Source: Eledone cirrhosa
Lineage: Eukaryota
Reading direction: 5' to 3'
DNA: 64,000 bases
Assembly (NCBI GenBank): GCA_964016885.1
Contig: OZ024743.1
Coordinates: 157,852,001 to 157,916,000 of the forward strand
The notes under the pieces were generated by a model. That model made no database searches. It was not told the DNA's origin and saw nothing but the letters and a program-made list of their open reading frames with translations. Shown in pieces: positions 805 to 51,900 of this stretch. Every line of letters starts with the position of its first letter. Position 1 is the stretch's first letter. The position numbers and the translations under genes are program-made.

Positions 805-1050
805 ACTACCTCCCTACGGATATCTGACGCTGTACACCAGGTCCGAACACGGAAGAGCCGAACTCCCACTGTCATCGCCTCCATCTCTCTCGCCCTGCCC
901 ATCTCTCTGTATTATGAGCAAATGGAGTCCCATGTGCTGGCCGCCCCACGGCCCCGGTGGACACAGAATGGAGAAGGCGTTTCCTCGGAGGATGGTAAGG
1001 GAGATGCGTTGGAAGAGCCATTCCATCTCGCGAGGCTCACACATGCGGTT
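805..1050 (-). mobile_element. 3' fragment of CRE-type RLE non-LTR retrotransposon
   Basis: Translates WLFQRISLTILRGNAFSIL, the QRxSxxxxRGNA C-terminal motif of CRE-clade restriction-like endonucleases; 3' region homologous to 49012-49100. Confidence 0.75.
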
Positions 1051-1098
1051 AGCCAGCTATGGTGGTAAATAGTCTGTGGTAAGTGTGGTAAGTAGGGA

Positions 1099-1684
1099 GG
1101 TATGTCAAATTAATACTATAGAACAACAACTGTATCATACACACCCTATATATTTCCAGGAGTACTTAGTACCTGTGGGGATATTGATCTCTTTTTATAT
1201 ATTCTCCGTTATGTAGAGAACAAATCCTTTGTTTTATTTAGCTGCTATTTTTAGTGGCGTGATAGTCAACACGTCTATGTTTACTTCCGCTTCTACTAGG
1301 GGCTGGTTCATGCACAGGTCAAGTCTACGGCCTCATTCGATCCCGTGCTAGCTGGCAGGTGGCAATATATGTTGCCGTTCCTGGGACTTTTGTCCTAGGT
1401 AGGGAAAATGCTTTCTGAAGATCTGAACATTTCCATTGGAAGTCCCTAGGATTTCCAATCTTTTGTGAAGTGAAACCGTCGGTAAAAGGAATAGGTGAAT
1501 ATTTAAATTATATTTTTTTATTTATTTTAAAAAATTGTTTGAATTTGCTTGCTCCGCTTATCTCAATTTTTATAGTTCTGGTATGTCAAATTAATACCAT
1601 AGAACAACCACTGTATCATAGACACCCTATATATTTCCAAGGGTACTTAGTACCTGTCGGGATATTGATCTCCTTTTATATATA
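1099..1684 (+). mobile_element. Terminally redundant non-coding HHR element (retrozyme-like), monomer ~481 nt
   Basis: ~100 bp direct repeat 1099-1200 vs 1580-1684 (ggtatgtcaaattaatac...gatattgatctc), one HHR between them, no credible ORF, ends in a TA run. Confidence 0.75.
1411..1488 (+). ncRNA. Type I hammerhead ribozyme motif, intact core
   Basis: CUUU-CUGAAGA(1415-1421)-U-[stem II with inner hairpin AUUGGAAGUCC/GGAUUUCCAAU]-U-GAAAC-CGUCG-GUA(1482-1484)-AAAG; stems I, II and III all pair. Confidence 0.85.
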
Positions 1685-1694
1685 GTCCAGAAAT

Positions 1695-1745
1695 AGCCGT
1701 CCGACGGCTTGAACTCTGCCGTCGGGGTCATACTTTTTCCTATTT
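1695..1745 (+). other. 5'-truncated 3' half of an HHR element (stem III plus GUC)
   Basis: ACGGC...GCCGUC-GGGG then ...cttttccta and (TA)n; same family as 4522-4582. Confidence 0.5.
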
Positions 1746-1879
1746 TTTTATATATATATATATATATATATCGGACAAACGGGACGCCGTATGGCGGACC
1801 GTTTTGCCGAGGAAGAATCTGTGTCTAGAGGAAACATGCTAGACATATTACCCATTTTTACATGAAGTATATCCGTAGC

Positions 1880-2200
1880 ATTCTACACATCTGAAGGCGG
1901 ATAACATTCCCTGACACTGTGATTCAGCAAGCCAAACTCCTACGCTCATGCAGAAGATTTTGTTAAGATGTCAATAGCGTATACCAAAGTGGCTTCTGTA
2001 TGGTGACCACTGTCCGGAAAAGCGCGCTATTTGGAGAGGAAAGAAGTGATTGAAGGACTTCCTAAAAGAATCTGTAAAGCACCTCAATATTGTGGTTGTC
2101 TCTTGATAGCTACTTGCCTAAACTGACATACTTGGTGCTGTAGATTAAGAATGGTTTCCAAATATCTGGCCAAAAATTAGTACTGAGAAGAAGCATTCGT
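1880..2200 (+). pseudogene. Degraded RTE-clade LINE 3' ORF fragment
   Basis: Broken frames give RIPKWLLYG and LKDFLKESVK, matching the RTE RIPKxLLYGEL...RFKD motif. Confidence 0.55.
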
Positions 2201-4154: not shown

Positions 4155-4521
<367 letters not shown>

Positions 4522-4524
<3 letters not shown>

Positions 4525-4582
4525 AAAAGAGTGAGGACCCCGACGGCTGAGCTCCGGCCGTTTCGACAGCTAAATCTGAACT
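4522..4582 (-). other. 3' half of an HHR element between TA runs
   Basis: Minus strand GAAAC-GGC cggagcuca GCC-GUC-GGGG, then ucuuuuccua and (TA)n. Confidence 0.6.
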
Positions 4583-4641
4583 ATATATATATATATATAA
4601 TACAAGGAATAATTGTTACTCGCTTATTACGTTTATTAGTT

Positions 4642-4726
4642 GGTGACGCGCGTTTCGCTACTGATCAGCTCAAGGTTCGATCTGTATGGATTTAACCCGA
4701 CACTGGAATCAAAAGCTCGTCGGACC
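4642..4726 (-). ncRNA. Type I HHR motif (U4C variant) inside foldback insert 4598-4775
   Basis: Minus strand GGU-CCGACGA-GCU...AGC-GAAAC-GCGC-GUC-ACC; flanks 4600-4640 and 4731-4772 are imperfect inverted repeats. Confidence 0.75.
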
Positions 4727-4786
4727 TCTTTAGTAGTAAACGTAATGAAGGAGTAACCATTCGTCCTTGTATTATTATATTACCCT

Positions 4787-8520: not shown

Positions 8521-9162
8521 TATATATATAAATATGTTATAAGGAGTCGTGGCCCGACGGCTGGGCTCTTGCCGTTTCAACAGGCAGACTGATTGCCAAA
8601 GGGCTCTCGGTTAACTGGCCGTATCACCAGGGGCGTGGCCAGTCCATATAAAGGTATAAGCTGTCCTTCCAAGTGTAAATTTTCCTTATAGGATGTTGCA
8701 GAAAAAGTTTTAGAATGAATTGATTGTATTTTATATATACAGATACACTTATACACATGTTTATATATTTTATATGTTTATGGAGTAGTTGTGTGTGTTG
8801 GTGTGTAGCTATGCAAGCGTGTATGTGTGTGTTTATGTGCGCATCTCTGTCTATATGTATGTTTCCTTAATTATGTGGGGATGGGTAAGATAGAAGCATT
8901 GTTAAGCAGATTTATGGGGTTGGGTGTAAATGTGTCTACTACTAGGCATATCGTTCACAATTTGCAGACACCAGAGCCAAGGAACTGACGCCTATAAGGA
9001 AAATTTACACTTGGAAGGACAGCTTATACCTTTATATGGACAGGCCACGCCCCTGGTGATACGGCCAGTTAACCGAGAGCCCTTTGGCAATCAGTCTTCC
9101 TGTTGAAACGGGAAGAGCCCAGCCGTCGGGCCACGACTCCTTATAACATATTTATATATATA
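8521..9162. mobile_element. Foldback insert in (TA)n: ~170 bp inverted arms (8521-8692 / 8991-9162) with ~300 bp spacer
   Basis: Arms differ at about 3 positions; both end at the same base next to (TA)n. Confidence 0.9.
9049..9131 (+). ncRNA. Type I HHR-like motif (A6G variant); mirror copy on minus at ~8551-8634
   Basis: GCCC-CUGGUGA-U-ACGG...CUGU-U-GAAAC-GG...CC-GUC-GGGC. Confidence 0.65.
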
Positions 9163-9477
9163 TTATGAAAATAAACCAAAGAAGCCTTCAATACATCAAA
9201 AGTCTTTATTAGCAACAATGTATGTACACTCCATATTCTTCTGTGTTTTTGGCTTGTATTGGCCGATAGTGCTTCTTATAGCTTTAATTGCCCTGATGAG
9301 TCCTTAATAGGACGAAACATTGTTGGCTAATAAAGACTTTTGATGTATTGAATGCTTCTTTGGTTTATTTTCATAATTCTTCGGCTCTGTTTAATTACAT
9401 TGAGCTATACCTTTACTGTCATTTCTATAATACGAAGAGGGTGTTTAACTCCAACACACTCTAGTATTTTAATTCGT
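9162..9477 (+). mobile_element. HHR element with a 5' inverted copy of its own post-ribozyme segment, in (TA)n
   Basis: 9162-9220 is the reverse complement of 9318-9377; ~100 bp tail follows; TA runs on both sides. Confidence 0.85.
9290..9327 (+). ncRNA. Canonical minimal type I hammerhead ribozyme
   Basis: GCC-CUGAUGA-GUCC UUAAUA GGAC-GAAAC-AUU-GUU-GGC; stem I extends further (cuuua/uaaag). Confidence 0.9.
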
Positions 9478-22826: not shown

Positions 22827-23117
22827 ATATATATATATATATGTAAACGGAAAAAATGAAACGACAATTCATTTCCCACTCTTAGTACGGCTGTTACTTA
22901 AATATAAGTATGTATCCGTACATACATATATGTATACAGACGTACAGTAGTATGTATATAAATATATATATATACATACATGCACACATATATATATGTA
23001 CATATGGATTGACCGAACATTTATTATAATGCTCGGTGTGTTTGTAAACAAACATCCCGTATTAAGCCGTAGTGTCTAGCAACCATCGTTGCTCGTTTGT
23101 TCAACACTGACAAAGGA

Positions 23118-23160
23118 ACGCTGTACTAGTTTCAAGCTTATTAGCTATCGTCAGCAACGT
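23118..23160 (-). ncRNA. Minimal type I HHR, intact core
   Basis: ACGUUG-CUGACGA-U-AGCU AAUA AGCU-U-GAAAC-UA-GUA-CAGCGU. Confidence 0.88.
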
Positions 23161-23468
23161 ATACCTTCCTGCCAGATGATTGTCGATATATATATGTACA
23201 TATATATATATGTGTACATGTATGTATATATATATACATACTACTGTACGTCTGTATACATATATGTATGTACGTATACATACTTATATTTAAGTAACAG
23301 CCGTACTAAGAGTGGGAAATGAAATTTCGTTTCATTTTTTCCGTTTATCGTTTTCGGTGCACCCGACCGATTAACCCACTCGATATACAAATTGGGCTAC
23401 TCAGCCGTTAATATGCATAAGGAAAGTATATACTTTCAGACGTTCAATCATCTAGCAGGAAGGTATAG

Positions 23469-23507
23469 GTTGCTGACGATAGCCAATAAGCTTGAAACTA
23501 GTACAGC
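23469..23507 (+). ncRNA. Minimal type I HHR, intact core
   Basis: GUUG-CUGACGA-U-AGC CAAUAA GCU-U-GAAAC-UA-GUA-CAGC; palindromic stem III ACUAGU. Confidence 0.88.
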
Positions 23508-23714
23508 GTTCCTTTGTCAGTGTTGAACAAACGAGCAACGATGGTTGCTAGACACTACGGTTTAATACGGGATGTTTGTTTACAAACACACCGAGCATTA
23601 TAATAAATGTTCGGTGAATCCATACGTACATATATATATATGTGTGTGCATGTATGTATATATACATACATACTACTGTACGTCTGTATACATATATGTA
23701 TGTACGTATACATA

Positions 23715-23761
<47 letters not shown>

Positions 23762-23764
<3 letters not shown>

Positions 23765-24204
23765 AAAGTTTTATATAAAATTGTTGGGTTACAACAAGTA
23801 AATATTTTATAACTGATATAAAGCACTCGACAAGTTTTGGAGTAGATATACGATATTAAACAAATGGAAACTATATTTATAAAACCATATTTATTTCATT
23901 ATAAATATTTCGGGGATACCATATTAAAAATATGGCATGCCTTCTTCAGATAAAATACAATATATAAACAGTTCTATAAATAATTTTGACGTACCATAAA
24001 TATTGACCAACCGTTATGTAAGAAGCTGGTTTTCTTACATAACGGTTGGTCAATATTTATGGTACGTCAAAATTATTTATAGAATTGTTTATATATTGTA
24101 TTTTATCTGAAGAAGGCATGCCATATTTTTAATATGGTATCCCCGAAATATGTATAATGAAATAAATATGGTTTTATAAATATAGTTTCCATTTGTTTAA
24201 TATC

Positions 24205-24209
<5 letters not shown>
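23762..24209. mobile_element. Foldback insert in (TA)n: ~178 bp arms (23847-24024 / 24032-24209), 7 nt loop, one-sided tail
   Basis: About 2 mismatches between arms. Confidence 0.9.
24101..24160 (+). ncRNA. Type I HHR motif (mirror copy on minus at ~23896-23955)
   Basis: CUGAAGA(24107-24113), stem II AUGCCAUAUU/AAUAUGGUAU, GAAAUAU-GUA; stem I is weak and AU-rich. Confidence 0.7.
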
Positions 24210-24239
<30 letters not shown>

Positions 24240-25765: not shown

Positions 25766-26287
25766 TGTGTGTGTGTGTGCGTGCAAGTATATAAATATGT
25801 GTATGTGTGAGCGTATGTGTGTGTCTATACTTTTCTGCAACTATTCCTTCTTCAGATTGTTTAAACGATCACCAGATTTTAATAGTCATAAATATGTTTA
25901 GCATTTTTACTGTATGGATTATGAAGCTGTCCCAATTCACTTGGTACATATGTTGCTCCGAGAATAATTGATATAGAGTAATGGAATATTTTTAGATACT
26001 GGATCTTTAAATTTCTGAACAATAGTCTGGACATATCTCCTTTACCTTTCATTTTTAACCATGTTAGTGTCATTTAATTACTCCAACAGAACAGAGTTAT
26101 ATTTTGTGATGTCAAATAACAATATCGCATACATTGCTCTTTAATTTGTTTGCTGTTCCTCAAATATTTTCCACTGGTCTTGATTTTTTCGTGTGTGTGT
26201 GTATATATATAGAGAGAGAGATACTTGACGGACATGATTTTTGACAGCGGTAAGAAATTTGTTTTCTTATATCAACGTTTAATGGGC

Positions 26288-26415
26288 TTCCACTGATGAT
26301 TTATAAGTGCCCACCTAAATATATTCTTACATGAGAATATATATTAGGCTTCTACATAAACTGGAAACATTCTCCCAAACCTGTAGAAAACTTATAATGA
26401 AACAATTGTTTGGAA
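26288..26415 (+). ncRNA. Type I HHR with ~100 nt stem II domain, inside repeat 26222-26600
   Basis: UUCCA-CUGAUGA-U-UUAUAAG...CUUAUAA-U-GAAAC-AAUU-GUU-UGGAA; homologous to 46578-46700. Confidence 0.88.
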
Positions 26416-27649
26416 AGATACTTTAACTTTAATTATATCTCATAAAATAATACAACTGGTTTTTCCACATTATACATATTGTTAGCACCCCAAACACTTA
26501 AATTGGGTTTATATTTTAATATAACCTAATGTTTGTTGAGTGAGATGGTTACCAGTCAGAGTTTAGCTTTAAACTATCTCTGTTATTGTATTAAATATAT
26601 ATATATATTTATATTGTCGAAGCGTTTTTTTCTGTATGTTTACTTTGTTACTTTTAATTCATTTCGTTTGTTATCCCACCAAGCCTCATACCTCATATGT
26701 ATTCTTTTGGTTTGCATATATATATCATATATGATTACATTCTGAAGAGGTGGTTTGCATTCTTTACATATTGTCAGGTGTTGTTTGTTGTCTTTTGTGA
26801 AAAATATATTTAATGGGGATTTATATTTCCTGGTCGCACGGTGGCAACCTTTAAGGTTCGATGTGACAAACTTGGTTGTATACAATACATGGCTTTTGCA
26901 TGGTTTGATTCTAAGTGTCTGGAGTTGTTGTTGGTTTGGAGAGGCGGGGAAATGTTTTGTTTTGTTTTTTCAGTTATCTATGCATGATCTTTTTGGTGAT
27001 CTTTTTCTTTGTTTTTTTCATTTTCGCATTGCGCTTGAGAGCATTTGCTAAAGTCCCTTGATTTGTGGTAATTTAATTGGACACCAATTCCGGATATATC
27101 ATTTCATATTAGAATGATAGAAGATTGTGTGATAGCCTTGATCAATTCATTTTTTATGCTTAATATTTAATTATTCGTTTTAATTACGTGAGCGTCGTTT
27201 TTTTTAAATTTAAACAGATTTCAGTTGTGATTATATTTAAGGTTGTTTACAGCTTGAACGATTTATATATATTTAATACTGTTTGGGTTTCACCAGTGCT
27301 TGGGCATACATAATGTATTATTAATGTACAAATACTCACTGATATTTTCTGGAATGTTGTTCGGTTCATTTGAATTCTGTTTACGTGTGTATGTGTGTAT
27401 GTATGTATGTATGTATGTGTGTGTGTATGAATGTATATATGTATTATGTTTGTATGTATGTATGTATTTATGTATTTATGTATTTATGCAATCATTTATG
27501 TAGGTATGTACGTACTTAAATATGTTTGTATGTCCGTACGTACATACGTATGAACGTATGTGTGTATGCATATATGTACGCATGTATGTACGCATGTATG
27601 TATGTATGTATGTATGTATGTATGTATGTATGTATGTATGTATGTATGT

Positions 27650-28244: not shown

Positions 28245-28792
28245 TTGAGAGCATTGAGAGTATCATCCACCAACGACGTTTGCGATGGACCGGACACCTC
28301 TGCAGAATGGAGGATGATCGAATCCCAAAACAACTCTTGTATGGCGAGCTTTGTGAGGGTAAGAGACCACTTCACAAGCCAAGGCTCCGATTCAAGGATT
28401 GTGTAAATGACTCATTGAAAAAACTGGTTTGATGGTGGCTGACTGGGAGATAAAAGCTCTTGAAAGAGAAACTTGGCGTGGAATGGTGAATGATGGGGTC
28501 CATAATTTTGAGGACAGACGCATAGAGCACGAGAAGATCAAAAGGGATGTGTGTAAGCAATGTCCTAGTGTATCTCGCAAATCTGGTCACAGTCGCAGCC
28601 ATGTTCAAAGAGAACTTATGAACTATAATCTCCACGATATTGTGAACGTTCACAAGCAAACCGATGCAAGACCAGAGGCCAGGGATATCCATAGCTGTCG
28701 TCAATGTGCGGAGTCTAGCAGGCTTGAAAAACTATATCCGAGCGTCATACATCTGAATCTGACAAGCGATTAGTAGAGTTTGCATCCATCAT
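28245..28792 (+). mobile_element. RTE LINE 3' fragment with (ATGT)n tail
   Basis: RLRWTGHLCRMEDDRIPKQLLYGEL..GKR...RFKD; ends ccatc(atgt)n. Confidence 0.85.
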
Positions 28793-28921: not shown

Positions 28922-29680
28922 TCATCCCTTGAATCGCAAGAATGTTTTGCAAATTTTGAAGGTGCCAGCTATCGCAGCCATTTGTAGGCTATGAATTAGG
29001 GAGCTGCACTTTTTGTCCGCAAATCCAAGTTCAGTCATACTTTGGTCTAAGCGGGTTGGTATATAACCCGTAGCTCCAATAATGATGGGTATGAAGCTAA
29101 AGGTGTATCTTGGATACTGGATTTGTAAACTCCTCATCAATGGTCCGTAGATGTCCTCCTTCTCCTGTATTTTTCTGACAACGTTTACATCAAGTGGGCA
29201 GCTGATCTCTACAACAGAACACGTTTTCAATGTGTGGTCCCAAACAACAATATCAGGCCGGTTGTGCTTTAATTTGGTGGCAGTTTTTATTTTCAGGTTC
29301 CACCAGTATTCCTTAGTGCCATCTGTCTCAATATATTCCTCCTCGTTTGTTGTTAATTTTGTTTTCCGAAGTGCGTTCCAGATGGTTCTAGCTATCCCAT
29401 CATGTCTCATGGGGAGGTAGTAGCGAGATGACATTCTTTCGCAGCTGGCAACAATGTGGCTTACATCCTCGATCTTTGTTTTACATAGCCTACATTGATT
29501 GTCAGCTGCTGGCCCTCCTCTTTTGTGCAGCAGATATTTGGTAGGGAGTTCTTGTTCCTGTATTGCATAGAGATATCCCTCAAGGTGTGATGTCATAAAC
29601 TTGTCGGAACTCCATGCCGGGCTTTTTGAGTGGTTTATCCCCTCTATGGTCTGTGTTGTACGCCTCAAGTATCCATGCAC
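28922..29680 (-). pseudogene. R4-type ORF, C-terminal part: CCHC knuckle plus restriction-like endonuclease
   Basis: AIQEQ, CRLC..EDVSHIVASC, RHD, RPDIVVWD, EISCP, K..Y; separated from the RT by a frameshift or stop near 29714. Confidence 0.9.
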
Positions 29681-29713
29681 AACTTTTTCTGTAAATTGGT
29701 CAATTTTTTTATC

Positions 29714-31166
29714 TTATTTGAACATTGAATAGGATCTTCCGATTTCTCTGGGTGAGAGATTTATATCAGGCTTTATTCCATATCTCTCCTCCAGATCAGT
29801 CGCTATTCTAATGATATTTTTTTGTTCATGCTCATAAACCTGGGCAAGATGGTTGCCAACCTTTTTCCTCTGTTGAAGGTGTTGCTTCAGTGTTACTATC
29901 CGGGTCTCATATGTTGTTAATATTGATTTTAGACCCCGGCCACCTTCCTTGCGTGAGAAGTATAGCCTATCCACATCACCATTGATGTTAAAGTTCCCAG
30001 TAACACTAAGAAGTTTTCGAGTTCTAACATCCATCTCACTTAGTTCTTGCAATGACCAGTTCAGCAGGCCAAATGTTGGCGTTAGAATTGGCACAGCATA
30101 GGTATTGTGGGCAATGTATTTGTTGTATGCTGACAGTTCTGATGACCATATTTTCTTTACTCTTCTGAGGTATTCAGTTCTGGTTCTCTCCTTATTTATG
30201 GCTCCATCATATCTGACATTCTCATCCTGTCCAAGATATCTGTAGTTGTCACTTGATTGCAGAGGTTGTATTGTCAGGCCCTTCATATCTAGATTTCTAG
30301 AGGAGGGAACAGCTCTTCCACGTTTTACTGCCAAATATGCACACTTGGACTCACCAAATTTCATTTTGATGTTAGTTGAAAATTGTGTAATGAGGTCCAA
30401 TTGTTTCTTGATGTCATTGATATTTGGCCCATACAACTTCAGGTCATCAACAAAGAAAAGATGGGAGATACTTCTGGGCCCACTTCTTTGTCCACCTTGT
30501 TTCCTGAGTAGGTAAGATAGTGGATTCCGTGAGAGAACGAAGAGTAGCACTGACAAGCTATTACCCTGAAAGATGCCCTTCTGGTAATGTATCTTATCAG
30601 TCTTAACTTGCTCCTTCTCACCTCTAAGGATCAAATTGGTGTACCAGTTCTTGTTCAGGCGTTCAACAGCAGCTACCAATGGTTGTGGGACTTTAGCTAA
30701 CTGTAAAGCCTTAATAATCCACCCATGAGGTACACTATCGAATGCTTTTTGATAGTCCAGCCACACCACAGTCATGTTTCTGCGATTCTTTGTTGTTTTT
30801 TCCTGAATCATTTTGTTGGTTAGTAGGTGATCTATGCAACCCCACACCTCCCTCTTTCCACCAGCTTGCTCAGGTGTTATGATGTTGTTGGTAGCACAGT
30901 GATCCTGTAAGAACAGGTTAAGGCACCCAGTATATAATTTATACATGATGTTTTGGCAGGCTATTGGGCGGTAATTTTTTAGCAAGGGTGGTTTGGCTAT
31001 TTTTGGGAATGAGGAGAGTAGTGGCAGTTGATAACCATCTGGGCAGTTCTTGTGTGCCTTTAATGGTTTCTGTAAACAGCCGTATGAGATCTTCCCGATA
31101 GAAAGTGAAATTCTTCAACCAGTATCCTATAATGAGGTCTGGGCCTGGCGATTTCCTATTCGACAT
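29714..31166 (-). pseudogene. R4-type ORF, reverse transcriptase
   Basis: KSPGPD, NYRPIAC, EQAG, WLDYQKAFDSVPH, GIFQGNSLS, HLFFVDDLKLY, YRYLG; frameshift near 30985. Confidence 0.92.
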
Positions 31167-31322
31167 TTTCTGTAGAGCTGTTTCCAGTATTGACCCATCT
31201 ATGTCATATTGTTTTATCTGAACATGTTGGCAGTAGTCCTGTTCCAGTTCTTTTAGCCAATTAGCTTGTCTGTTGAATCCGTCATCCGTTTCCCATACAG
31301 ATCTCCAGTAGCTCTCAACCTG

Positions 31323-32414
31323 TTATTTTGAAGGGGTGTCGTTTACAGGGATTGAGCTTTTGCCACCGAAGCTGCGATAAACTGATTTAGGATCTCTGGC
31401 AAACAATCTATTTAGCACTTGTCGTTTATGTGCTGTTAACTTATATTTTAGTCTTTCTGTTGTAGCTGTGAGTTGTTGTTTCAACTGGTGTAATTTTGAG
31501 TTCAAAGTTTTAAATTTTGTATCTCCAAATCGTCTCTCTAACTTTTTCTTTAGGTCTTCCTGGTGTCGTGTGAAGTTGCTCTCTATGTTGCATTTCATAA
31601 CGACTGCGATGTGTAAGATACTTCGTCTCAGGGACAAAATTTTGGTTTTTAAATTTCGCATCCACGCTGGTTCAGGCTTTCTGTTTGTATCTTGATTGCG
31701 TGGTTTTAGATGTGTGTTATATGATAGCAATGTGACAGCTGAAACATATAACAAAACATTAAGCGTTTCAAATGTCGTTTCTACACCTTTAGATCGTATA
31801 GCCTTCAGATAATTGCCAGCTATTTCGTTCACCGCTTCCAATTCCAATTTAGTGGGTTCTTTACTGATTCTGGTGTTGTATGGTCTGTCACTCACATTAA
31901 GGCTGTGTATCTCTTGAAACATATCGTTCCATATCACTTGTAGGGTGTCCACAAGTGTTTGGTGCTCTGTTTGTTCAGCCTCGTTGTTGATGTGGTGACA
32001 ATTACTACTAGAGTTAGCTGACCTTTCTCGCTGTTCTTCAGTGGAAGTGGGATGGATTTCAGCAGAATTGTTGGTGAGCTGTTCACTGTTAGATTTAGCT
32101 GGCCATTCTCTTTGTCTGTTAGTGGAGGTGGGGTGGTTGTCTACAAGGGCTGTATTTGTAGTATCACTCAATTCCGTTAGATGTATCAATTTACATCTAA
32201 TGATACGTTTTGCCTGTTTATTTAAATGCTTTGGAGAAAAGTCTAATTCTGGGTGTTTGGAGTTCCATAAAGTGTTTAGCCTTTGCATAAAACCGAACTT
32301 TTGGGCTTCAGATTGTTTGTATGCTTCATATAATAGTTTGTTAAGCTCGTAGCTCCATTGTATACAACGGTTGTAGTTGCGATTTGGTCGAAGGAGACTT
32401 GTACTTTTTGCCAT
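31323..32414 (-). pseudogene. R4-type ORF, N-terminal region
   Basis: 363 aa from ATG, colinear with the RT; contains PAWMRNL and NRLF..DPK segments typical upstream of R4 RT; premature stop at 31323. Confidence 0.75.
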
Positions 32415-33074
32415 GATGAGTTCGTCTATTCACTAATATTTCGTATTTATTTTTCAAAATAGTCGATGATCTTCTTTAAAAGTTTCGACAAAGTTCTGTC
32501 AGAATCAAATTTAAAGTTATTCACAGCCTGGGTAATATTTCTTTTCAGTTAGTTTTTAATTCTACAACTGTGTTTTAAACGTTGTTCTTGAATCGTTTGA
32601 ATCGAGAACAAAAAGAACCGTTACTTAGTATATTCCTTTATGAATGTAATATAGTATAACAACGCTGTATTTATATGTTAAAGTTTATGTATCATTCACA
32701 TAAATAGGTGTTCTACAACTTATTCACAACATATTCACAGTTCAAACACTTATGTTTTTTGTTTCTGAATCGAAAACGTTACTTGTATATTTCTTTATAA
32801 ATGTAATATAACAACGTTGCATTTATATGTTAAAGTATATGTATCGTTCATATATCATAAGTGTATGTATCGTTCATATAAATAGGTGTTTTACAACACA
32901 CTTACAGTTCAAACACTTATGTAGAATTATTGTATGTAATCTTACCGTGTAATGTAGCTCAACTTTTTCCAATATATGGTATGTTGCCTTCATGTAAGCT
33001 GTAATTACACACGTCCGATTATCGGGCACTGACCACAACGGCCGCCATTATATGTATGTATGTATGTATGTATG

Positions 33075-46132: not shown

Positions 46133-46146
46133 TATATATATATATA

Positions 46147-46873
46147 GTGAGTTGGAAATTGGTCGGAGTATCACTAATAGCTTTCTCCGTTTATGTAATT
46201 ATGTATTATACTCTTGGTGCAACAGACATGAACTATCTCGATATAAGGTATGACTCTCTTTGTTTATTTTTTTATATGAATATTGATTGTTTTGTTCCTG
46301 TATCTCATGTCTCTTATTTTGCCTGAGAAAATATCTCTATGTGTCCTTAAACAGTACACACATATATTTATTTTTTCATATCCAATTGAGTTCTTCGCAC
46401 GAGGCTTGAATTCTTGTCAGAGTTCAATGACCTGCGTGTATATTATTTTTTGGCGGTAGCCTTCTCCTCCCATTTTTCAGGACAGTGTGAGATTTTCTTT
46501 CAAACTGCTGGACTTACAGCTTAACAATCGCTAAATATTGATATTGATTTAGTTATTAATATAAATATTATTGGGCACCCACTGAAGATTTATAAGAGTC
46601 CACTGGCATAAGAATCCATTGATCTTACACAAACTTCTACATAACTTGGTATAATTTCACCCACCATGTAGAAATCTTACAATGAAACGATTCGTTTGGG
46701 AAATGAGTTATTTAATATATCTCATATAAAATAATACAGCCAATTATCCACACAATACAATATAGTTAGCACCCCAAACGTTTAATTGGGAATATACTCC
46801 GGTATTTCCTAATGTTTGTTGAGTGAGTTGGAAATTGGTCGGAGTATTGCTAATAGCTTTCTCCGTTTATGTA
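46147..46873 (+). mobile_element. Terminally redundant HHR element (retrozyme-like), monomer ~676 nt, in (TA)n
   Basis: gtgagttggaaattggtcggagtat...ctccgtttatgtaa at 46147 and 46823; one HHR; no credible ORF. Confidence 0.8.
46578..46700 (+). ncRNA. Type I HHR with long stem II domain
   Basis: CCCA-CUGAAGA-U-UUAUAAGA...UCUUACAA-U-GAAAC-GAUUC-GUU-UGGG; covaries with 26288-26415. Confidence 0.88.
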
Positions 46874-47639
46874 AGTATGTATATATATATATATATAAAA
46901 GCATATTACCCGACTGCTTGTTTTGGTACGTCCACCAATAATTCACTGAATCACCTTCACTATATATATATATTTGAAATAGGCAAATTTGAATATATGT
47001 GAATAGGCAAATGGATCACGTGGTATATGGTTTAAGCTATATTCTGATCTAAGCTATGGCTGTGTCTATTTTTGAAGTGGTATGAATTTGGTTATGAGTC
47101 GTCTGTCTATATTATCCTCTGGATCAAAAGACAAGACTTGTCAATCTTGCTTTATGACCCTCGGAACACATGATCGAAGCTTCAGAATAACAAGACTGAC
47201 TCAGCCTTAATAAAAAAAAAAATACTAATGTCTTCTATGGTATTGAGTACTCATGCTCGTAACCGTCAATTGTTCAATAATATGGATTATTTCCTTCACA
47301 TAAACGGGTGTTACATACAATCATATATCAAAATGTACTGTAGTTTACTTGCACCTTTTATATGTGCAAATATTTTTTTCTTTATCTTTTTAACGTTTAT
47401 TTTTACCGACAATTTGTTTGGTTCTAGGGCTGTAAAGAAAGGGTATTCAAACAGAAATTTCTTTTGTTATTCTAGTTAACCTTTTTCACAACCAATCACC
47501 TTTCGAATTTCAAGAATGTCTTCATATTTTTATAGTTAACCATATGGTGATCATCTGCATTATATGTATTGTCGAGCTGCATTCTTTCCTTACGAATGCA
47601 GCTCGTTATTATTGCATGTGTGAATCTACGTTTTGACTC

Positions 47640-49004: not shown

Positions 49005-51900
49005 AATCCGTATGGTGAGCAAATGGGGTCCCACGTGGTGTCCTCCCCATAGCCCCGGCAGACAGGATGGAGAAGGTTTTTCCCTGGGGGATGGTAAGGT
49101 CATACCGTCTGACCTTTTGCCATCCCCTCGGACCAGCTCCTCTGGCTCGAGCTGGGAGGGGAAGCCTGCAGCGTCCAAGGCTTGCTTAATGACCTCGTTG
49201 AGGGCAGCATGACGTGGAAGGCGGCCGGCACTGGGAAAGCGGGTGGAGTCCGAATGAGTCCACGGTGGATCCACAGCGACATTTATGTGGCTCGCAGATC
49301 CGGAGTCCAAGCCTCAAAAAACGCCGATGCGCAGGCTATCGATATCCAGCTGCGTGCCAGTGGAGAAGGAGGGCAAGGCATGGAACCAGGCATCCCTATG
49401 GGGTTTGGAGGCCACGCAGTGACAGGCAAGGCGGTGCTGGTCGAGCTGGCGCGTGAGTCTGTCTGAGGCCACGCTGCACTGGATGGCATTCCATATGCTT
49501 TGGGGGGACTTGAGGTCAGCAGGGGGAGAAGGAGGAGGAACGTCTACCGGGTTAAGTCCCAGCCTGTCCAACGTCTCACAGGCGACCTCACGTTCCCTGA
49601 ACACAGAGGGTTCTATTGTGTTTTGGAGAAACCTGCTAACGAGGACGCGGCATGAGGTTACCGATGAAAGAAACGCCGGGAAGGCCAGCGAGATCGGGGA
49701 TCGGAGGCCAAGGCCGCCAAATCTGACAGGTAAAGTGGCCTGTTGCCATACAATGTCGGCAAACCTGACGTTGCATATCTCTTCAACTGCCACTCGGATA
49801 CAAGTATCGTGGTCAGCGAGGAGAGATGCGTGGCTGTAGCACGGAGTGCTGCGAAGGGTGTAGAGGAGCTTCGGCATGGCGAAGCAGTTCCTCAACAGGA
49901 AGAGAGCTGGGTGACCGTCGATCAAGCCCAGTCGGCTCGTGAGGGTCTAGAGTTGTTGGAGCCTAGACCTGATGGTGGAGCGGATGCTCGGCAAATGGAT
50001 CGGTGACCCGAGGATGAGGATATCCTCTTTGGAGGTCATCTGTACCTCGTGGAGAATGGACCACACGTCCAAGACGGAGGCCGCAAAGCTCTCAGCATCA
50101 TAGCTGACATTCACCACCTCCGACTTGGACGAGTTGACCTGGAGGCCGATTCCCGCCAGGGCAGGAACCACCGATTGAAGGTCATGGCAGACAGTCTCCA
50201 CATGCCCGCCCAGCGTAGCATCATCCAGGTACTAAACGTTGAGAGGAGCCGTGATACTCCGGGAAATGTGGTTTATACCAAGGGCAAACAGGAGGGGACC
50301 CAGAGGGTCGCCATGTTGGACCCCAGTGGCCGAAGGTATGACCGTATCAGCAGCAAGGAGCATGCTCGGGGCTCCATATGACAAGTAAGCCAGTGGGTAG
50401 GCGGATGGGGCTCGGGTGAGGCATTAAGCAGATGGTCCCGACGTATGCAGTTAAAAGCATTCCTCATGTCAAGCTTGACAATGAGGTGCATGGAGTCTCT
50501 GGTTTCCTGTTCCGATGGGCAGCTATTGAAGAACTGCCTGGTTGCATGTGCGGCCCCCTCACAGCCACCGGACATGTCGACAACCAGTTTCACTGGACTG
50601 AACTCCTCACCCAGTTCAGGTGTTATGGACCTGCAGACCACCTTAGCAGCCAGCCTCCGGAAGACATTGCCCACAGCGTTGGGGCGTATCCCGCCCTCTT
50701 TCTTCCTGAGAGCGGTCAGGCTAGCCGAAAAAAATAGGCCTCGGGCGTAAGGATCCAGGGCACCATGGATAAGCCTATTGGTAAGTCCCACAATTGCACT
50801 CAGAAGGTTGCGCCCGGCCTCAGCGGAGAGGGGGGATAGCAACTCCATGAGGTGGCCTGGTTGGAGACCATCAGCACCTCCGCTGCTACTAGCTGGGAAG
50901 GACTTGACGGCAGACATGATGTCTGCGTCGGAAGCCACAAGGAGCAGGTGGGGGTATGGGTTGGAGGTCAGCGGGTGGCTCAGGGTGCTTGAGTCACAGG
51001 GCAGCCAGAACATCCTCGGTGTGTTGGAGGACAGTGTCCTCTGAGGCAACCACTCTGACTGTGGCCTTGACATCACCCATGATGATTTTGGCGCTTACAC
51101 GGTCACGCAACCGCTTGGAGCTGGCCTAAGGGGTGGAGGATTGGAGACACCCAAGAGCAGGGCTTGTGGCGTCTTTCAGCACGCTTGGAATGGGCGTTTA
51201 CCCATTGGCCTTGATAAAAGCTGCTTTCGACCGGCCGCCTAGGTCAGTGCCACAGCTGGGGAGGCCGAGGGTGAGTGGGGCGAAATAGAAGAGGCGCTCT
51301 CAGTCGCTGGCTCGATTGGAGTCCAGAGCACTCTCGATCGAGGAAGTGAGGGCATCGGCTACCGGCACCCGGGCAGCTCTCGGGATCCTGAACGTAATCT
51401 TCCGGAGCCCCCTGGGCTGAGTGATGTTGACCGGCGAGGCTTGGGTATCAGGCAAGCTCGCTGTCTCATCTGGTGGAGTGCCAGATGGCCTTGACTGGGC
51501 AGACGATGGGAAGAGACAGTTTCTGCATCTCCACGCTGCGAGGGCACTGGAAACTCGACGCGTCAAGCCAACACAGGTGAGGTGGTGGAAGCAGCCGCAC
51601 CCCGAACAATTACGGCCCCTCTTCCGTCTGTTCGTGGTGCTGCAAGTGCTGCAGATACCGACTGGTGGGGATGGAGGATGGGGCGTGGAGCCGGGGACTG
51701 GAGCACCAAGTGGCATCAGGGGTGAGTGGCTGGTTGTCACCAGTGTAGGTGCTAGGCACAACTGCACGTGGGTGGAAGAGAAAGTGTTGGTATGGGTGAG
51801 GCCTCATAGCTCACCTACATCGGATATGGAGGCGACAGAAGACAAGATAAAAGAGAAGGGGGTTGCATGGAGGGGGACACACATGAAAGTAGAAAGTTAG
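49005..51900 (-). mobile_element. Degraded near full-length CRE-type non-LTR retrotransposon (PHD finger, RT, truncated RLE)
   Basis: SGGADGL.P.HL, KKEGGIRP.AVG..RRL, KLDMRNAFN, GVQHGDPLGP, YLDD, LPVRFGGLGL, RH, GKRSDG; GC-rich relative to host; many frameshifts. Confidence 0.88.

Follow-up and report, generated by a model that had tools for sequence, protein, structure and literature searches.

The window analysed here is a 64,000-nt stretch of the Eledone cirrhosa genome (GenBank assembly GCA_964016885.1, contig OZ024743.1, positions 157,852,001 to 157,916,000 of the forward strand), which is AT-rich, microsatellite-rich and full of retroelement remnants, and positions are counted from its first letter. 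On the plus strand, positions 1099-1683 hold a 585-nt element in which a 481-nt unit follows a 104-nt, 5'-truncated copy of its own 3' end, forming a partial tandem with a pseudo-LTR. The 5' repeat (1099-1202) and the 3' repeat (1580-1683) are identical at 97 of 104 positions (93.3%; E 1.6e-39; period 481), differing by seven substitutions and no indel (JC distance 0.07), which bears out the preliminary description of the locus as about 1.2 units (585/481) of a terminally redundant monomer. Between the repeats lies a single-copy body (1203-1579) with many short hairpins and a hammerhead ribozyme (HHR) motif at 1411-1488, and the redundancy is situated away from the ribozyme, as had been proposed. 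The unit, whose GC content is 37%, also proved to be non-coding as first described, with no Pfam match at E < 0.05 in the seven frames overlapping it and none in its longest open frame of 88 codons; the reverse transcriptase (RT) and GIY-YIG reading frame that would mark an autonomous Penelope-like element (PLE) is absent from 1099-1683. Neither a further copy of the body nor a dimer or array of the unit was found in the 64-kb window, and a pattern spanning the HHR of the element returned no matches in GTDB genomes.

The motif at 1411-1488 (plus strand) lies near the 3' end of the 481-nt unit (199 nt) and has the three helices of a hammerhead in the type I order, with a 4-bp helix I (1411-1414/1485-1488), core segments CUGAAGA (1415-1421) and GAAA (1472-1475) that fit CUGANGA and GAAA, and U1483 and A1484 at the UH position, cleavage being predicted after A1484. 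Helix II occupies 50 nt (1422-1471) and is composed of a U·U closing pair, 2 bp, two G·A mismatches, 3 bp, an internal loop and, at 1435-1459, the 11-bp inner hairpin that had been noted from the start (1435-1445/1449-1459, with one G·U pair and a 3-nt loop). Helix III is a 9-nt palindrome (1475-1483) that is stable only when two copies pair, its free energy being 0 kcal/mol as a hairpin vs. -11.3 kcal/mol as a dimer duplex. The claim that the core is fully intact holds for all of the conserved core nucleotides; it does not extend to the helices, as U·U (1422/1471) closes helix II where a G10.1-C11.1 pair is expected and helix III lacks a stable monomer hairpin. For HHR positions beyond those of the published PLE consensus, the numbering is what we presume it to be. 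The palindromic helix III and short helix I are those of PLE-type HHRs, and a palindromic helix III is a published hallmark of dimer-dependent animal and PLE HHRs (PMC4209133); the unpaired H after position 9 followed by G-C in the consensus given there has no counterpart at 1411-1488, where G-C occurs in neither register, and helix II is far longer than those of the PLE HHRs in the alignment rows published in the same source.

A bare HHR motif is weak evidence given that a loose HHR descriptor found 0.27 hits per shuffled 64 kb, with 25 of 100 shuffled windows hit. This rate, together with the single-copy status of the unit in the window and the presence of 17 local direct-repeat pairs per 64 kb, would suit an origin by local DNA duplication, in which 104 nt were copied in surroundings full of repeats and the HHR next to them is a solitary relic or arose by chance. 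When a palindromic helix III was added to the descriptor, a mark that is published but was applied only after the site at 1411-1488 had been seen, the window contained five hits with a helix I of at least 4 bp and six with at least 3 bp, vs. 0.01 and 0.03 hits per shuffled window, and none of 5000 shuffles of 1099-1683 was hit, which argues against a chance motif and contributes to our judgment that a local duplication is improbable. No Rfam HHR model matched at gathering score in the 64-kb window or at E ≤ 10 in positions 600-2400, and in a MAFFT alignment of eight HHRs the helix II lengths were too different to align. The U·U closure of helix II recurs in five of the six HHRs of the window, across three families; decay was considered as its cause and rejected, since recurrence in three families points to a trait. 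As Rfam misses HHRs with a long, U·U-closed helix II, such ribozymes are probably undercounted in this host.

The HHR region by itself is not unusually stable (z -0.61), and the fold of the whole unit exceeds its shuffles both as a linear molecule (z -3.3, 0/100) and as a circle (z -4.0, 0/60), with a minus-strand value of -2.0 and a range of -2.8 to +1.7 among 16 control stretches (12 shuffles each). The fold energies of the linear and circular forms are -130.6 and -126.0, and as the two score alike the unit folds without preference for a circle. Adopting the active HHR fold is predicted to cost +5.8 kcal/mol in the local fold and, within the circle, +12 to +14, and the active dimer is predicted at -42.9 vs. 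-39.4 for two monomers and -50.9 for the best dimer fold. In these models the HHR at 1411-1488 would be a dimer-dependent and probably slow variant, sequestered by the fold when only one copy is present. The axolotl HHR_Amex2, whose helix II likewise has U·U at its base, behaves similarly, its cleavage being weak in the monomer and good in the dimer (PMC7229834), as predicted here for both forms; unlike the ribozyme at 1411-1488, HHR_Amex2 is canonical in size and resides in long tandem arrays. The metazoan retrozymes differ as well, in that the HHR of 1099-1683 lacks the small loop-loop contact, has a helix II of 50 nt and is predicted to be locked. The proposal that cleavage at GUA (1484) would free a 481-nt unit did not survive the analysis, since a locus with one HHR permits one cut and yields no monomer.

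To the left of the element (895-1098, minus strand) is a 3' fragment of a non-LTR retrotransposon, which we take to be CRE-like. Its homology to other copies ends at 1098, exactly where the repeat begins, which also argues against a local duplication, and GT at 1100-1101 matches those copies too; a 9-nt tandem duplication lies within this fragment just 5' of the junction (1076-1093). To the right, after a 3' end (TATATAT) that the element has in common with the flank, a repeat of about 62 nt (1684-1745, plus strand) stands between TA runs and looks by eye like the 3' half, in degenerate form, of a different HHR family. It was considered as a part of the element and rejected, because the same repeat stands alone at 4520-4582. 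The two copies (1684-1745, plus, and 4582-4520, minus; 78% identical) have the same two ends, are both GT-initial, and each lie directly 3' of a different HHR element and TA run. Four comparisons did not find the left-flank retrotransposon continuing in the right flank, and the flanks do not rejoin as one pre-insertion site. No target-site duplication (TSD) was found among lengths of at least 5 nt, and the TA-run setting agrees with the AT-rich or (TA)n targets, with TSDs absent or obscured, of PLE derivatives. Past the right-hand repeat, at 1767-1814 (plus strand), 16 codons encode a GIY-YIG-like peptide, YIGQTGRRMADRFAEE, a possible scrap of a PLE endonuclease whose Tyr-Ile codons run into a TA tract and look as if they had been hit by a TA-targeting insertion. 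The scrap is a motif match whose Atlas cluster (score 0.89; GIY-YIG in 17% of members) is a lead only; it had no Pfam match, the one candidate submitted was not scored (0/1), and a search of 1.84 billion representatives was empty. Six-frame matching to PLE protein motifs returned largely noise, and no PLE reading frame was found in the 64-kb window.

A short non-coding interior framed by direct terminal repeats could also be that of a miniature LTR element, either a TRIM or a plant-type LTR retrozyme with 104-nt LTRs. This reading is largely excluded, and we consider it very improbable: the repeats have no TG...CA ends, neither a primer-binding site nor a polypurine tract adjoins them, the TSD search at lengths of at least 5 nt was negative, and the HHR is of type I and outside of the repeats, in contrast to the type III HHRs within the LTRs of plant retrozymes (preprint 10.64898/2026.07.22.740005).

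A sister element of the same layout lies between two TA runs at 46146-46887 (plus strand), which again speaks against a local duplication at 1099-1683. It has a 66-nt repeat (94%) with a period of 676 and a single HHR at 46582, with a 95-nt helix II, U·U closure and a palindromic helix III. A 5'-truncated relative of the sister, 69% identical, is found at 26257-26600 (plus strand), with an HHR at 26293 whose 99-nt helix II is multibranched; the HHRs at 26293 and 46582 differ by compensatory changes in helices I and III, and a search for an upstream partial repeat of the copy at 26257 scored 25, the noise level. A donor-like GTAAGA sits at 26250, 7 nt 5' of where the homology of this relative begins. 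Homology of 1099-1683 to the family of 26257 and 46146 was rejected (scores 31 and 35 vs. shuffle means of 37 and 34). The element and this family have a weak common word near their 3' ends (reached by 21 of 3000 random stretches), and in a check, covering these two elements only, for the 30-40-nt tail extension of PLE derivatives, a word just past the repeat of 1099-1683 falls just inside the end of 46146-46887.

Further HHR-bearing inverted repeats adjoin TA runs in the 64-kb window, an arrangement described for PLEs (PMC8557442, PMC3846280), and PLE-like HHR remnants are abundant in it. A canonical short type I HHR with a G-C-closed, 5-bp helix II and a palindromic helix III lies at 9293-9324 (plus strand) in a self-inverted stretch (9162-9377) and has no Rfam match at gathering score. 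Nested inverted repeats at 22844-23724 have TA-run ends and carry two HHRs, both U·U-closed, at 23154 (minus) and 23473 (plus), and a near-perfect inverted repeat at 23843-24213 has, by eye, a minimal HHR-like motif per arm (24096, plus). The latter has two weak words in common with 1099-1683, one of them at a level reached by 23 of 3000 random stretches. An inverted pair of 98% identity (8520-8692/8991-9163) contains, also by eye, an HHR-like motif with the core CTGGTGA and a long helix III; its own 3' half is like the short repeats at 1684-1745 and 4520-4582. A rod-like, self-complementary 190-nt stretch at 4591-4780 (minus strand) has an HHR with one core change (4723) whose helix II is G-C-closed and 60 nt long and whose helix III is palindromic. 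The word CCGTT(T)ATGTA matches five times in the window (1206, 24011, 24045, 46187 and 46863), in each case within an HHR element, and may be a cis signal near the 3' end, a suggestion made post hoc from the sequence. Other inhabitants of the window are two long, broken non-LTR retrotransposons with RVT_1 and zf-RVT matches (28922-32429 and 49314-51803, both minus strand) and a coding remnant at 1978-2085 (plus strand), 44% identical to 28319-28426, which is presumably RTE-like. For one retrotransposon protein of the window, the best relatives with a name were proteins of Octopus sinensis, at 44% identity, in line with an octopus as the host.

These features together indicate that 1099-1683 is very probably a non-autonomous, retrozyme-like derivative of a PLE that was inserted once as a partial tandem. 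That the insert was reverse transcribed is supported by its reading through the cleavage site (1484/1485), its distinct junctions in unrelated flanks, its stable fold, and the layout of the sister; of the earlier proposal that it was copied from a circular or concatemeric RNA, the reverse transcription of an HHR element and an RNA intact across the cleavage site can be upheld, the circularity of the template not being established. The partial-tandem layout with an HHR near the 3' end is found in both 1099-1683 and 46146-46887, and its recurrence, with TA targets and inverted copies, matches the insertions of PLEs, in which a full unit follows a 5'-truncated copy, TA targets are used and inverted copies occur (PMC8557442, preprint 10.1101/2021.04.23.441226); PLEs normally insert as partial tandems (the same sources and PMC3846280). 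Compared with the PLE partial tandems of PMC4209133, PMC8557442, PMC3846280 and PMC11167929, the element has the same 5'-truncated copy before a full unit, an HHR near the 3' end with a palindromic helix III and a short helix I, a TA-run target, a microhomology 5' junction, and a splice donor inside the pseudo-LTR. One rotifer PLE partial tandem lies within a non-LTR element, without a TSD and with a microhomology 5' junction (PMC3846280), and 1099-1683 resembles it in its non-LTR element host site, in having no TSD seen, and in its 5' junction. It differs from PLEs in having no RT/GIY-YIG reading frame and in the replacement of the conserved G10.1-C11.1 by U·U, and its 5' end is at the donor, whereas that of PLEs is upstream of it. 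Counted against a PLE derivative are the lack of a second copy of the 481-nt unit in the window and of homology shown to an autonomous PLE, together with the negative searches for the endonuclease scrap, the missing Rfam match, the predicted cost of the active HHR fold, the failure of most assayed Xenopus retrozyme dimers to cleave, and flanks that do not rejoin.

The element is also close to the metazoan non-LTR retrozymes (PMC7229834; Li et al. 2026), with which it has in common a non-coding unit of a few hundred nucleotides with a GC content below 50%, a type I HHR, a self-paired fold, no LTR, primer-binding site or polypurine tract, and PLEs in the same genome; in the genome of Octopus vulgaris, PLEs make up 6.83%. 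Animal retrozymes derive from PLE pseudo-LTRs, measure 51-972 bp and are often monomers, and an active retrozyme is defined by two HHR units (Li et al. 2026, preprint 10.64898/2026.07.22.740005). That definition leaves out 1099-1683, which has 1.2 units and one HHR in place of two or more consecutive units with a complete HHR each, and we therefore class it among the retrozyme-like non-autonomous PLE derivatives rather than the active retrozymes. Of nine predicted Xenopus retrozyme dimers assayed in vitro, eight did not cleave and one did (same preprint).

For a PLE derivative, the most likely course of insertion would begin with a PLE reverse transcriptase/endonuclease supplied in trans that nicks a TA run. 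Reverse transcription would initiate within the RNA, at the TA-rich word whose last position is 1683, copy through the uncleaved HHR and stop 585 nt on, at 1099/1100, whereupon the cDNA would join the flank via 2-3 nt of microhomology, leaving no target duplication. The mobility of 1099-1683 is proposed from sequence. A lizard PLE studied in vitro started internally, preferred AT-rich targets and used unprocessed RNA, and its insertion was independent of its own HHR cleavage (PMC11167929). Granting a PLE derivative, the template may well have been a linear tandem transcript that had not been processed and that began or was truncated in the ordinary way, to which we give somewhat less than an even chance; an RNA given its 5' end by splicing at the donor is a lesser possibility, and an HHR-cut, ligated circle or concatemer is doubtful.

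The last of these would make 1099-1683 a retrozyme copied 1.2 times, from a random start, around a ligated 481-nt circle, a special case of the PLE-derivative explanation that we regard on the whole as unlikely. Retrozyme circles of 170-400 nt are proven in coral, mussel and axolotl, the insert reads through the cleavage site, and the unit folds stably as a circle; at 481 nt, the unit at 1099-1683 is longer than the proven circles and is known here from DNA alone, it folds as well in linear form, and in most circles of animal retrozymes the HHR can fold freely (PMC7229834), in contrast to the locked state predicted here. Each of the two partial-tandem elements has one HHR per locus, the window has no dimer or array, and PLE partial tandems arise from uncleaved RNA with no circle required. 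The 5' ends of both elements, moreover, lie on the only donor hexamer of their units, which for a circle copied from a random start is a non-random position (n = 2).

This hexamer, GTATGT, which fits what we take to be the consensus of 5' splice donors, forms the left end of the element at 1100-1105 (plus strand), recurs in the 3' repeat at 1581-1586, and is the only GT[AG]AGT or GTATGT in the unit; the branch consensus used below is likewise assumed. The sister starts at the donor GTGAGT, and its 3' copy contains a further GTAAGT near 46871, so that the count is one donor hexamer in 481 nt for 1099-1683 and one in 676 nt for the sister, or two with its 3' copy. Both elements (2/2) start within 1 nt of the sole donor of the unit, and as the donor words of 1099-1683 were counted before the sister was located, the sister is an independent, out-of-sample check, with a probability by chance of about 0.4-0.9%. 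Among the 17 local direct-repeat pairs of the window, three start at a donor hexamer, namely these two and a microsatellite pair, the last being the one such case among the remaining 15. Five of the 17 pairs span an HHR-like motif, and the three besides 1099-1683 and the sister are two pairs of dispersed copies that we presume to be SINE-like and one inverted rearrangement, none of which starts at a donor. Starts at the only donor of each unit suggest that the 5' ends of these HHR elements may be fixed by splicing rather than circularly permuted, with n = 2; fixed ends are the outcome that the preliminary description had itself named as counting against it.

A splicing-defined template would be an RNA that starts at intron G1 (a debranched lariat, lariat intermediate or intron circle) and whose cDNA ends at the donor, another special case of the PLE-derivative explanation, and one that we hold tentatively, as a reading with a modest chance of being right. 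Beyond the coincidence of starts and donors, it is favored by the longest exact run between the relative at 26257 and 46547, a 20-nt stretch in sequences 69% identical overall that consists of a branch-like word, a U tract and the donor, and by the introns of PLEs, which begin within the pseudo-LTR and whose retention is unexplained (PMC8557442); in Penelope and Chlamys-3 the pseudo-LTR is known to contain a donor. It is weakened by the sample of two, by the GT at 1100-1101 that matches the flank too, such that microhomology could have set part of the junction, by the inverted-repeat HHR elements of the window, which by eye have no donor start, and by Drosophila Penelope, whose transcript begins 46 nt before the intron. 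Signals of a 3' site are weak and unlike each other: in 1099-1683 a 3'-splice-site-like stretch of a loose branch word, pyrimidines and TAG (1557-1575, plus strand) ends 5 nt before the internal donor and is one of six acceptor-like stretches in the 481-nt unit, whereas in the sister the signal overlaps the donor. A junction made by reading through the branch (yUnA|GT) fits the sister directly and 1099-1683 only with a skipped base. In the joining of intron-3'-like sequence to a 5' splice site the element resembles spliceosomal intron circles (Ares et al. 2024, PMC11146597), the junctions of which are full-length or trimmed; those circles are rare RNAs of host introns, whereas 1099-1683 has five extra nucleotides after AG and is seen in DNA only. 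No report of PLE 5' ends at splice donors or of cephalopod HHRs was found in the literature searched, which excluded most subscription papers.

The element at 1099-1683 is a real feature that belongs to a known kind and carries a variant HHR, and retrozyme-like PLE derivatives as such are ordinary and widespread in animals. Its variant traits are a helix II of 50-100 nt and a U·U closing pair, which occur across several families and are undetected by Rfam. The donor start is the part that could matter, since the origin of PLE partial tandems and the retention of PLE introns are both stated to be open in the literature consulted. It is conceivable, at the modest likelihood given to a splicing-defined template, that these HHR elements act like mobile introns, with the template RNA's 5' end made by the spliceosome and not by the hammerhead or a promoter; the unit would then, with the same reserve, have a 5' splice donor at one end and a 3'-splice-site-like sequence at the other, the two being joined head to tail. 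If true, such a mechanism would fix the 5' end at the donor, a 1.2-mer with one ribozyme could regenerate from read-through transcription, and a mechanism would be offered for both the intron retention and the partial tandems of PLEs.
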